A DNA stretch of 64,000 bases from Candidatus Korobacteraceae bacterium (GCA_050015355.1 JBEKBO010000017.1:359-64358); one strand, 5' to 3'; counted from the first letter of the stretch, positions 14,878 to 18,544 are shown. Numbers and translations: made by a program. Notes: a model not told the origin generated them from the letters alone.

Positions 14878-15597
14878 ATGGCAAAGCTACAAGATGAAGT
14901 GACGGCGTTGATCTTCGATACCTGGGGGACAATCGTTGACTGGCGCGGCAGTCTGCTCAATGAGTTATGCGCCTTCGGGCGGCGGATGGATTTGAAGATC
15001 GACTGGGAGCCATTCTTAGAGGAATGGAGAAGCGCGTACGAGCCGGCGAAGCAGAAGGTCAACAGCGGCGAGCTTCCGTGGACGAAGATGGACGTATTCT
15101 ACCGGCAGGCGCTCGTTCAACTCTTAGCCAAGCACAACATCACCGGCCTTGGTGAAGATGACATCGAGCATCTCAATCGGGCTTGGACAAGAACGCGCCC
15201 CTGGCCAGACTCGGTCGCAGGGCTTACGCTCTTGAAGAGGCGGTACGTTCTCTCCCCGCTGTCGAATGCGAGTTTTGCTTGGCTCATTGATATAGCCAGA
15301 TTCGCTGGTCTTCCGTTTGACTGCGTCATCAGCTCGGAAAATGCACGCTGCTACAAGCCCCGTCCGGAAGTTTACCTGACTGCCGTCAATCTGCTCGGCC
15401 GAAAGCCGGATCAAGTCATGTTAGTAGCCGCGCACAACTACGATCTTCGCGCCGCCCGCTCGCTCGGACTGCGGACTGGATTCATTGCGCGTCCGACGGA
15501 ATTCGGTCCGCGTCAAAACAAAGACTTCCAGGCCGAGGAGAGTTGGGACGTGATCGCGGAGGACATGATCGATCTTGCCAGAAAAATGGGAGCGTAA
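14878..15597 (+). CDS. haloacid dehalogenase type II
   Basis: LIFDTWGTIVDW nucleophile motif, SNA, YKPRPEVY and AAHNYDLRAA motifs. Confidence 0.85.
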   Translation: MAKLQDEVTALIFDTWGTIVDWRGSLLNELCAFGRRMDLKIDWEPFLEEWRSAYEPAKQKVNSGELPWTKMDVFYRQALVQLLAKHNITGLGEDDIEHLNRAWTRTRPWPDSVAGLTLLKRRYVLSPLSNASFAWLIDIARFAGLPFDCVISSENARCYKPRPEVYLTAVNLLGRKPDQVMLVAAHNYDLRAARSLGLRTGFIARPTEFGPRQNKDFQAEESWDVIAEDMIDLARKMGA

Positions 15598-15651
15598 AAA
15601 CCGGCGCGCGCGGCGCAATTCGTGGTGCTCTCCTCAGCGCGGCCGACTATC

Positions 15652-16638
15652 TCAGGAGTTTTGTGGACGGCTGAAATCCGGCAGGTGCACGAGGTCTTCT
15701 CGCGGCACGTCTTCCACGGGGTATCCAGCTTTGCGCCAAGCCGCGAGACCGCCGTTGATCACAAATGCATTGAATGCTCTTTCCCGCAGTAAATGCGCCA
15801 CCCGGGCGCTGGTCGCTTCGCGCAGTCAGGTGCAGTACAGATAGATGTCCTTGTCATGGGCGAGGCGCTTGATCTCTTCCTCCAGGTTATTGGGTTCGAT
15901 GCGAATTGACCCCTGGATGCGCGCGGCGCCGGAGTCGTAGTAACCATGACTACGAACATCGACCACAAGGATCTTGTCCGATCCTTCGGAATGAAGCCTC
16001 TTCGCCAGCTCGTCCACTTGCACGCGGGGCACGACGCGGTATATGCGGCCCTTGCGGTAGAGCAGCATGCGATAGACGACGAACGCGCCGATGGCGGCGG
16101 CCATAACGATCCCGACCGCGTGCCCGGCGACTTGAAAACCGCGGGTGAGGACGACAATAAAGTCATGGAAGAGAAACCCGACACCGCCATACCCCAGGAC
16201 CCATAAGCTGATCCCAATGAGATCGAGCAATACAAACTGGGCAAAGGGCATCTTCATGCTTCCGGCCAGCGGTGGAACCATCGCGCTGACGCCGGGGATG
16301 AACTTGGCGATGATCAGCGTTGTCCGGCCACGCTTGTAGAACGACTCGGCGGATCGCAGGATGCAGGTCTCCGGATTCATGGAAACCTTGCACATGAACC
16401 CCAAAAGTCCCCAGCCCATGTAGCGGCCCAGAACGAAGAGCAGCGAATCGCCCAGCAGCATCGCCGCAAGCGCAACGAGAAACACTGCCGGGGCTTTCAG
16501 GGCTCCTGATGCCGCCGCCGCTCCGCTTCCCACCAACGTCAGCGAGGCCGGCACCGGCACCCCGAGCGACCCCACAAAGACGATCGAGGAGATAATGATG
16601 TAGCCGTGTTGCGCAATCCGGGATAATAAGGCGCCCAT
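15652..16638 (-). CDS. DedA-family membrane domain fused to a rhodanese domain, interrupted by an in-frame TGA at 15826-15828
   Basis: ORF 15826..16638 ends ...DKDIYLYCT-TGA. The same frame continues LREATSARVAHLLRERAFNAFVINGGLAAWRKAGYPVE to a TGA at 15652-15654, which is the missing C-terminal half of a rhodanese fold. Confidence 0.75.
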
Positions 16639-16736: not shown

Positions 16737-17528
16737 TCAATTCCCAGGTCTGGCTTTTTTTGCCGGGGTGATCTTGGCAACTTTTTTCTGTCCTCCGCCT
16801 CGCAGAGGATCGGCCGGCTGATATCCGAGCCCGGTCGATAATAGCTCCACCAGCTTCGCCAGCACCTTAGTCCTTGCCCAGTACTTGTCGTTTCCCTCCA
16901 CCAGGCACCAGGGCGCCCCACTCGTGCTGGTCTTCACCAGCATCTCCTCGACGGCTTCCGCGTACGCGCCCCACTTGTCGCGATTCCTCCAGTCCTCATC
17001 CGTGAGCTTCCATGCTTTGTAGCCAACAGCTTTGCGCTCTTCGAAGCGTCGAAGCTGTTCCTCGCGGGAGATATGGATCCAGAACTTTGCCAGGATTGTT
17101 CCAAAATCACGCAATTGCCGCTCGAAGGAATTGATCTCCTTGAAGGCTCGCTTCCATTCCGCCTCGGTGGCGAATCCTTCCACGCGCTCCACCAGTACCC
17201 GGCCGTACCAGGAGCGATCGAAGATCGCCATCTGCCCTCGCTCCGGCAGCCGCCTCCAGAATCGGTAAAGATAATGCCGGGTCTTGTCTTCCCCTTGCGG
17301 AGCGCTGATCGGATAGACGACATAGCCGCGCGGGTCCAGTTTTTCGGTAACTCGCTTGATGACGCCGCCTTTGCCGGCCGCGTCCCAGCCTTCGAACAAG
17401 ACGATCACGGGACGCTGTTGCAGGTAGATCTGGTATCCAAGCTCACGGAGTTGAATCTGCCGCCGCGCCAGCTCGCGCACGTAGGCCTCGCGATCGAGCG
17501 TGCGGGTCAGATCCATTCTTTCCAGCAT
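16737..17528 (-). CDS. polyphosphate kinase 2 family protein
   Basis: VIVLFEGWDAAGKGGVIKRV Walker A-like motif and the FDRSWYGRVLVERV lid motif. Confidence 0.9.
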   Translation of the reverse strand: MLERMDLTRTLDREAYVRELARRQIQLRELGYQIYLQQRPVIVLFEGWDAAGKGGVIKRVTEKLDPRGYVVYPISAPQGEDKTRHYLYRFWRRLPERGQMAIFDRSWYGRVLVERVEGFATEAEWKRAFKEINSFERQLRDFGTILAKFWIHISREEQLRRFEERKAVGYKAWKLTDEDWRNRDKWGAYAEAVEEMLVKTSTSGAPWCLVEGNDKYWARTKVLAKLVELLSTGLGYQPADPLRGGGQKKVAKITPAKKARPGN

Positions 17529-18331
17529 TAGAGTTTCCCTTTGCCCAAGGACTCCATGGCCGCGCGCAGATCGGCGTCGCGTGGCATTCCCTCCGCAGCC
17601 TGGGTCAGAGGCGGCGCGTTCGCCCCCAAGCGCTTTTCCATGGCGGTAATGATGGTCTCAAATACCTTCTTCCGCGCGTGCCATTTCGATGTCGCCTCGA
17701 CGATGGTCCATGGCGCATATTCCGATTCGGTCAGCTCCAGCATTTCCTCGATCGCCGCCAGGTACTTCTCATATTTCTTGTGGCGGTTCCAGTCGGCTCG
17801 CGTCACACGCCAAGCTTCCAGCGGGTCTGCTTCGATCATCCGGAAGCGCCTGCTCTGCTCTTTTTTGCTGATGTGAAGAAAAAGCTTCAAAATGGCGGTG
17901 CCGTCGTCGGCCAGCATGCGCTCAAACTCGACGATGTCGCGAAGAGCCTCCCGCACCGCTTTTTCCGGGACCGCGCGCTCGACGCGCTCCTCCAGCACGC
18001 GGGAGTACCAACTGTGATCGAAGAGGACCATCTCCCCCCGGTTCGGAACTTTCAGCCAGAACCGCCATAGCCAGGGCCGCTGCTGCTCGTAAGTGCGCGG
18101 AGCGGTGATGGGGTAAAGCTTGAAACCGCGAGGGTCCAATCTTTGAGTCAGGGTGCTGATCGTCGTACCTTTGCCGGAGGCATCCCAACCTTCGATGATC
18201 ACAACGGTAGAGACACCCTGGTCCCAGCATGCCTTCTCCAGATCGTAGAGGCGCCGCTGCAGGCCCGGCAGAGCGCGCTTGTATTCTTCCCGTGACAGCT
18301 TTTTCTTCTTCAGGTTAATGTTTTCTAACAT
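17528..18331 (-). CDS. polyphosphate kinase 2 family protein
   Basis: VVIIEGWDASGKGTTIS and FDHSWYSRVLEERV. Start placed at the ATG at 18331 (MLENINL). The stop overlaps the downstream PPK2 start (TAATG). Confidence 0.9.
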   Translation of the reverse strand: MLENINLKKKKLSREEYKRALPGLQRRLYDLEKACWDQGVSTVVIIEGWDASGKGTTISTLTQRLDPRGFKLYPITAPRTYEQQRPWLWRFWLKVPNRGEMVLFDHSWYSRVLEERVERAVPEKAVREALRDIVEFERMLADDGTAILKLFLHISKKEQSRRFRMIEADPLEAWRVTRADWNRHKKYEKYLAAIEEMLELTESEYAPWTIVEATSKWHARKKVFETIITAMEKRLGANAPPLTQAAEGMPRDADLRAAMESLGKGKL

Positions 18332-18544
18332 CGCTGGAAGCTGCCCGCTAAGCTGCGCCGCACCAAAACTTGAATACAGGATTGTACACGCGTTACAGCG
18401 CCCCATCGGCCATAATCAGCGGTCCCAACATGTCTGCCCGGAACGTCTGCCCCAACACGCGCAAACGCGGCGCGTGCCGGGGACCCCCAGAACCGGGCAG
18501 AGCACGGCGCCGTAGCTAGAGTAGTGTCCCGAAAGTTGAGGACA

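Follow-up and report, generated by a model that had tools for sequence, protein, structure and literature searches.

The gene occupying positions 15652–16638 on the minus strand of the window (that is, the whole 64,000-nt stretch of DNA that was analysed, from a soil acidobacterium) almost certainly encodes a 328-residue inner-membrane selenoprotein, in which a UGA at codon 271 is predicted to be read as selenocysteine (Sec) through SelB and a hairpin in the mRNA. Sequence comparison indicates that this TGA (15826–15828) is very probably a Sec codon, and not a recent nonsense mutation; if it is read as Sec, then the real product has 328 residues rather than the 270 that are listed in databases. 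The first-pass annotation had left a choice between a Sec candidate and a very recent pseudogene. The first half of that proposal gained from the Sec machinery of the genome, from an alignment column shared by Cys and TGA, and from conservation, while the second half did not survive, given TGA forms down to 31% identity, an intact downstream frame and the observed pN/pS.

Minus-strand translation reproduced the reading frame that had been described at the outset. An open reading frame begins with ATG at 16638 and runs for 270 codons (15826–16638), ending in ...DKDIYLYCT immediately before the TGA at 15826–15828; the same frame then continues for 57 stop-free codons, LREATSARVAHLLRERAFNAFVINGGLAAWRKAGYPVEDVPREDLVHLPDFSRPQNS, until a second TGA at 15652–15654. 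Translation and the frames of relatives both placed the true stop at this second TGA, giving a read-through gene of 328 codons plus stop (15652–16638). Pfam located a VTT/DedA membrane domain at residues 39–154 (16177–16524, minus strand; PF09335, with 56 bits where the gathering threshold is 33.9) and a rhodanese domain at residues 208–303 (15730–16017, minus strand; PF00581, 42.2 bits against 22.2). The joint between the two is formed by the last long helix and an Arg/Lys-rich linker, ...YRMLLYRKGRIYRVVPR, which corresponds to a helix at residues 172–201 in the AlphaFold2 model (16036–16125, minus strand). It had been claimed that the TGA splits the rhodanese domain of a DedA-rhodanese fusion, and this was upheld: the TGA lies inside a single Pfam rhodanese domain that spans it, and the downstream frame would therefore be the missing half of that domain, rather than a chance open frame.

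The AlphaFold2 model of the read-through product (mean pLDDT 78.7) was entirely helical for residues 2–201. The active-site region was modelled as a strand (264–269), a loop (270–274) and a helix (275–286), an arrangement that, as predicted, is the canonical active-site cradle of rhodaneses. In the model, Cys269 (codon TGC, 15832–15834, minus strand), which supplies the Cys of a C-x-U motif, closes the central beta-strand. Foldseek matched the C-terminal domain to the rhodanese structures 3nhv, 3ilm, 6mxv, 1gmx and 5hbo, with a probability of 1.00 for the first four.

The DedA part scored 37.7 bits to the equivalog for the undecaprenyl-phosphate transporter UptA and 45.9 bits to the PRK10847 DedA equivalog, where the cut-offs are 300 and 236 bits respectively. 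A separate observation concerned residue 23 (16570–16572, minus strand), in the first membrane segment, which was Glu in at least 90% of 51 homologues (VFAEAIGLPVP), Gly in the protein studied here and in its genus (VFVGSLGVPVP), and Met in two divergent copies from the same genus (G004 and G010). The column may or may not correspond to the essential Glu of E. coli YqjA, and the Gly found here may matter if the DedA domain carries out proton-coupled transport.

A search of approximately 5.8 billion proteins returned two kinds of homologue. Entries that were 79–99% identical, one of them named 'VTT domain-containing protein' by NCBI, were every one exactly 270 aa long, and are therefore truncated at the same codon. 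Full-length homologues (321–324 aa, 60–72% identical) read YCTC-x-REATSA across this region, with an invariant Cys271 beneath the TGA; for one such Cys form the DNA was checked and had a genuine TGC at position 271. Cys269 was invariant in alignments of 23 and of 51 homologues and stands two residues before position 271, which defines the C-x-U motif. The solved rhodanese 6mxv has its catalytic Cys in the TGA column (C-GGGFR-S versus U-LREAT-S). Codon 271 (15826–15828, minus strand) was thus aligned, both with the Cys of homologues and with 6mxv, to the catalytic-Cys position, and on these alignments U271 opens the active-site loop, taking the place of the Cys on which ordinary rhodaneses form a persulfide. 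The earlier expectation that the TGA would fall in a Cys column was confirmed, since orthologues have either Cys or the same TGA there. The motif given in the first-pass annotation, YC(T/S)CPNEA(S/T)SA, was wrong for the orthologues, with their YCTC-x-REATSA, and right for distant paralogues at 29–37% identity; in both groups the column is Cys wherever it is not TGA. The consequence is a systematic annotation error, as the close entries found in NCBI, JGI and ENA all end at residue 270, which discards that half of the rhodanese domain in which the active site lies.

A genuine termination at this codon would leave a 270-residue DedA protein carrying a rhodanese stub, with the downstream sequence retained as a small ORF or an RNA element. 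This is very unlikely, albeit the best of the alternatives. Gene callers and NCBI do annotate the 270-aa form, and a same-frame ORF of 49 codons (15652–15801) could begin at a GTG at 15801; against this, half a rhodanese fold on either side of a stop is unlikely to be functional, the two parts together make up a single Pfam domain and, by AlphaFold2 and Foldseek, a single rhodanese fold, and the homologues with Cys are single full-length proteins. The stop, moreover, falls exactly in the catalytic Cys column, and the TGA forms co-occur with selA, as described below.

The TGA was widespread. Thirty of 61 related genomes had a homologue with TGA in the column of position 271, and the TGA persisted down to 31% protein identity, including paralogues that are 31–37% identical. 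A tblastn scan using one genome per GTDB species identified at least 580 relatives, counting Sec and Cys forms together; among the best 80 of these, all from metagenome-assembled genomes (MAGs) of Acidobacteriota (Terriglobia, Acidiferrales), 73 loci had TGA, five had TGC and two could not be parsed. In all, more than 100 independent assemblies carry the TGA, and it is not therefore an error of a single assembly. The frame downstream remained unbroken for 46–59 codons, as far as the expected C-terminus, in all 28 TGA forms examined. Non-synonymous and synonymous differences were compared among 25 orthologues: pN/pS was 0.371 for the 60 codons before the TGA (pS = 0.73), 0.343 for the first 11 codons past it (pS = 0.25) and 0.315 for codons +12 to +52 (pS = 0.63). 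Judging by these substitution patterns, the region past the TGA is translated, and the purifying selection acting on it matches in strength that acting before the TGA.

These observations bear directly on the idea of a recent pseudogene, in which a fresh nonsense mutation changed TGC or TGT to TGA in a Cys-type gene whose frame has not yet decayed. Only one base need change, Cys-type homologues exist, and an open frame of 57 codons is not very improbable by itself in GC-rich DNA. Nonetheless, the same TGA recurred in 30 relatives and, among the 80 closest species (the best 80 of at least 580), in 73, the downstream frames were intact, and the TGA forms were not one recent clone, since their synonymous differences reached a pS of approximately 0.6–0.7; they also occurred only in selA-positive genomes (37 of 37). 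The pseudogene was rejected on the conservation of the TGA, the intact downstream frames and a pN/pS past the TGA of 0.32 against 0.37 upstream (both rounded), and its probability is very small indeed. An intact frame under selection, combined with a shared TGA, likewise disposes of a one-off assembly error.

A Sec codon requires Sec machinery, and the first-pass annotation had reported that selA, selB, selC and selD were lacking from the window. This was accurate; the window contains no tRNA gene, and the sel genes lie on other contigs. A genome-wide check, which the annotation had proposed, recovered the complete set in the source genome (96.6% complete, 229 contigs): a tRNA-Sec with anticodon UCA (66.8 bits), selA (550 bits), selB (380 bits) and selD (378 bits). 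The SelD of this genome is a selenoprotein itself, with an in-frame TGA (VKAAG-U-ASKLSP; G000:C98:2137-3057, L015, outside the window). Its mRNA hairpin has 8 bp and begins 13 nt past the UGA, so that the distance from UGA to loop is the same as in the DedA-rhodanese gene.

Across genomes, selA was present in all 37 TGA-form genomes that were tested, comprising 30 relatives and seven controls from GTDB. Five genomes lacked selA but had a homologue (G013, G029, G034, G061 and G065), and every one of them had TGC or TGT instead; Cys forms were found also in four selA-positive genomes. For the association between selA and the TGA or Cys state, a one-sided hypergeometric test without phylogenetic correction gave p ~ 9e-5. 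When 74 Sec and 55 Cys sequences were placed on one tree (129 in all), at least 13 changes of label were needed, of which at least eight were forced by well-supported branches; the mean for shuffled labels was 41.8. As reconstructed from this tree, the repeated switching between Sec and Cys is the kind of exchange typical of selenoprotein families.

The hairpin that had been noticed after the UGA, GCGCC-CGGGU-GGCGC, was present as described: its loop is separated from the UGA by 21 nt and has G as its second base. This SECIS-like element occupies 15795–15809 on the minus strand, nt 17–31 past the UGA, where GCGCC (15809–15805; nt 17–21) pairs with GGCGC (15799–15795; nt 27–31) around the loop CGGGU (15804–15800; nt 22–26). 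The loose geometry of bacterial SECIS elements places the apical loop 16–37 nt after the UGA, with a G in it, and the observed loop position and sequence agree with this. Third-position entropy among 28 TGA forms was lowest, out of 322 five-codon windows, at codons 277–281 (AGC GCC CGG GTG GCG), where it was 0.18 bits against a median of 1.42; these 15 nt are the exact hairpin stretch. RNAalifold recovered the hairpin as the consensus of 27 distinct sequences. In the 73 Sec-form loci among the best 80 of at least 580 GTDB loci, the stem was paired at five of five positions in every case, with just four changes, each one-sided and each a G-U wobble, and the loop was either CGGGU (48 loci) or CGUGU (25 loci).

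Amino acid sequence was affected too. Arg at +8, the codon for which supplies the loop, was found in 74 of 74 Sec forms versus 29 of 55 Cys forms. The Cys forms of selA-less genomes had broken stems and free third positions. Among the best 80 of at least 580 GTDB loci, five base pairs were still possible in two of the five Cys-form loci; the conserved peptide S-A-R-V-A also favours part of the hairpin sequence. As far as these alignments indicate, the SECIS hairpin fixes both the synonymous sites and the Arg codon of S-A-R-V-A, and is a natural example of dual coding. The stem is short, at 5 bp, and no compensatory double changes were seen in it among the TGA-form sequences compared, because the stem is nearly invariant. 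Single-sequence folding of 15760–15831 gave a stability no better than shuffled sequences (z = 0.54), with another pairing as the minimum-free-energy fold; such folding is uninformative for a SECIS element of 5 bp, and the comparative evidence was therefore relied upon. An Rfam scan of 15500–16000, with E up to 10, returned no SECIS match and just one chance snoRNA hit, which is uninformative also, since Rfam is not known to include a model for bacterial SECIS elements.

Read-through without selenium, in which a tRNA for Trp, Cys or Gly decodes the UGA as a near-cognate or a suppressor, would equally yield a full-length protein. The base directly after the UGA here is C, a context in which bacterial UGA codons are leaky. 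However, the genome has complete Sec machinery, the distance between hairpin and UGA equals that in its own selD, strict nucleotide constraint on the hairpin was confined to the TGA forms, and the selA-less genomes all have Cys codons; decoding without Sec is, like the pseudogene, a highly improbable account. The chance that the true codon in the source genome is TGC or TGT, and that the TGA arose through an assembly or sequencing error, is negligible: the window does come from an assembly of 229 contigs and some related MAGs have frameshifts in the gene (G006, G008), yet the TGA and its flanking bases are identical in seven other orthologue-bearing assemblies of the same genus (G001, G002 and G005–G009), the TGA recurs in dozens of other genera, and the genus-specific SECIS sequence is intact.

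The frameshifts just mentioned are single-base insertions that break the gene upstream of the TGA, at G006:C10:80303-81149 (L042) and G008:C16:16520-17414 (L025). Both are same-genus MAGs of lower completeness, and the frameshifts probably reflect indels introduced during assembly, not a real loss of the gene.

If the codon is read as Sec, then expression would follow the established bacterial pathway. A ribosome arriving at the UGA of codon 271 would encounter SelB-GTP with Sec-tRNA(Sec), bound to the mRNA hairpin GCGCC-CGGGU-GGCGC 17 nt downstream; after insertion of Sec, translation of 57 more codons would complete the rhodanese fold. In the predicted product, a long helix with an Arg/Lys-rich linker joins an N-terminal DedA/VTT membrane domain to a rhodanese domain. 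The rhodanese domain is probably cytoplasmic, going by the positive-inside rule as applied to the linker, YRMLLYRKGRIYRVVPR. By analogy with the chemistry of rhodaneses, the most likely reaction would have two steps: the selenolate would attack a donor of sulfane sulfur or selenium, or else some other oxidised substrate, so taking up sulfur or selenium or becoming oxidised itself, and Cys269 would then resolve the adduct through a Se-S bond (a selenenylsulfide). Overall, the protein might serve as a membrane-tethered module for sulfur or selenium transfer, or for redox chemistry, that acts with the DedA domain.

A more specific proposal, which we consider unlikely though conceivable, is that the DedA-rhodanese is a membrane-coupled chalcogen relay. 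The DedA domain would import or present a species of selenium or sulfane sulfur, and the cytoplasmic C-x-U rhodanese would trap that species in a Se-Se or Se-S adduct before passing it to a further acceptor, of which selenophosphate synthetase is one example. Selenite resistance has been connected with a DedA protein (Ledgham 2005, as cited in PMC10127716). Were the relay real, it would be a selenoprotein feeding the cell's own selenium or persulfide economy, and a frequent neighbouring gene for a CYTH-domain protein (at 46 of the best 80 of at least 580 loci; see below) might mark a further partner reaction.

Gene neighbourhoods were inspected around the same loci. In the window, two polyphosphate kinase 2 (PPK2) genes, identified by Pfam, lie directly upstream on the same strand (16737–18406, minus strand), the nearer ending 98 nt before the DedA-rhodanese start codon; this adjacency was seen at three of the best 80 of at least 580 related loci, within the genus only. 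At 46 of those 80 loci, a gene for a CYTH-domain protein (a triphosphate tunnel metalloenzyme with the N-terminal motif EIEIKFR) lies downstream on the same strand, 20–140 nt past the end of the matched gene among the loci listed (L069:2490-3059 and 45 others among L055–L134). The CYTH gene was absent from the 64,000-nt window. Both neighbours are enzymes of phosphate polymers, which may or may not be meaningful. Neighbourhood was set aside as a clue to function, given that PPK2 is confined to the genus and that CYTH is common yet absent here.

Two further sets of sequences were observed in related genomes. Distant DedA-rhodanese paralogues (29–37% identity, CT-U-PNEATSA), with a TGA and the same hairpin, were present in G012, G017, G018, G022 and G037 (L045, L051, L052, L046 and L044 respectively), and Cys-type members of this paralogue group (G013, G015, G029 and G034) read CTCP(N/S)E. 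Stand-alone rhodanese ORFs with one in-frame TGA were found at G017:C20:220634-220969 (L135), G042:C50:126427-126744 and G043:C54:31960-32283; these had open frames of 120–153 aa and scored 73–101 bits to the NCBIfam profile NF041203, below its cut-off. By sequence, they are probably single-domain Sec rhodaneses of the same bacterial group.

Taken as a selenoprotein, the DedA-rhodanese extends the bacterial selenoproteome by an architecture that is embedded in the membrane. Around the source gene the Sec form predominates, being found in 73 of the 80 closest species (the best 80 of at least 580). The family offers a handle on the role that a rhodanese fusion has for DedA proteins, and on the preference for selenium at a sulfur-transfer site.

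Set beside known systems, neither the recoding mechanism, which is canonical, nor the Sec site is new; the fusion to DedA has no entry in the selenoprotein catalogues searched. The best NCBIfam match was NF041203 (rhodanese_LYCAU, 'rhodanese-related (seleno)protein'), which aligned over profile positions 17–125 of 126. It shares the motif L-Y-C-x-U (here LYCTU, residues 267–271), in which Sec lies in the active-site loop and the Cys comes two residues before it. The differences lie in score and architecture: the DedA-rhodanese scored 87.8 bits, or 83.4 in the genome scan, where the cut-off is 115, a value that no sequence reached in any of 37 related genomes, and the profile, from its length of 126 positions, should describe a stand-alone domain, whereas the rhodanese here makes up the last third of a membrane protein of 328 residues. 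Membership was rejected on the score and on the DedA/VTT domain (residues 39–154) ahead of the rhodanese. The rhodanese selenoprotein with a CxU motif appears as 'form 3', or COG0607 form 2, in the reviews PMC13188914 and PMC9312934, neither of which mentions DedA, VTT or PF09335; a full-text literature search for DedA with selenoprotein gave no paper whose title or abstract described a protein of this kind. TsoB (NF045694) is comparable in being a Sec-containing rhodanese fused to another part, but that part is DsbD-like rather than DedA, its motif is UxxxxU with two Sec (PMC13188914), and the protein studied here scored just 24 bits to it against a cut-off of 805.

Cys-type DedA-rhodanese fusions (COG0586 DedA with PF00581) have the same two-domain architecture, and differ in having Cys at 271 and no constrained hairpin, where the present protein is predicted to have Sec. 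A study of DedA subfamilies recorded the DedA-rhodanese fusion and called its link to undecaprenyl-phosphate transport unclear, with no mention of selenocysteine (PMC10127716). YgaP of E. coli (PDB 5hbo) likewise places a rhodanese fold at the cytoplasmic membrane (Foldseek rank 47, TM-score 0.67, target-normalised), but its catalytic residue is Cys, not Sec, and it has neither a C-x-C/U pair nor a DedA domain. Its domain order is also the opposite of that in the DedA-rhodanese, with an N-terminal rhodanese followed by two C-terminal helices. At the level of the mRNA, the closest parallels are E. coli fdhF and the selD of the source genome, in which an in-frame UGA is likewise followed by a hairpin with G and U in its apical loop; the selD hairpin has 8 bp and a 3-nt loop, while that of the DedA-rhodanese, to which SelB is predicted to bind, has 5 bp and a 5-nt loop.
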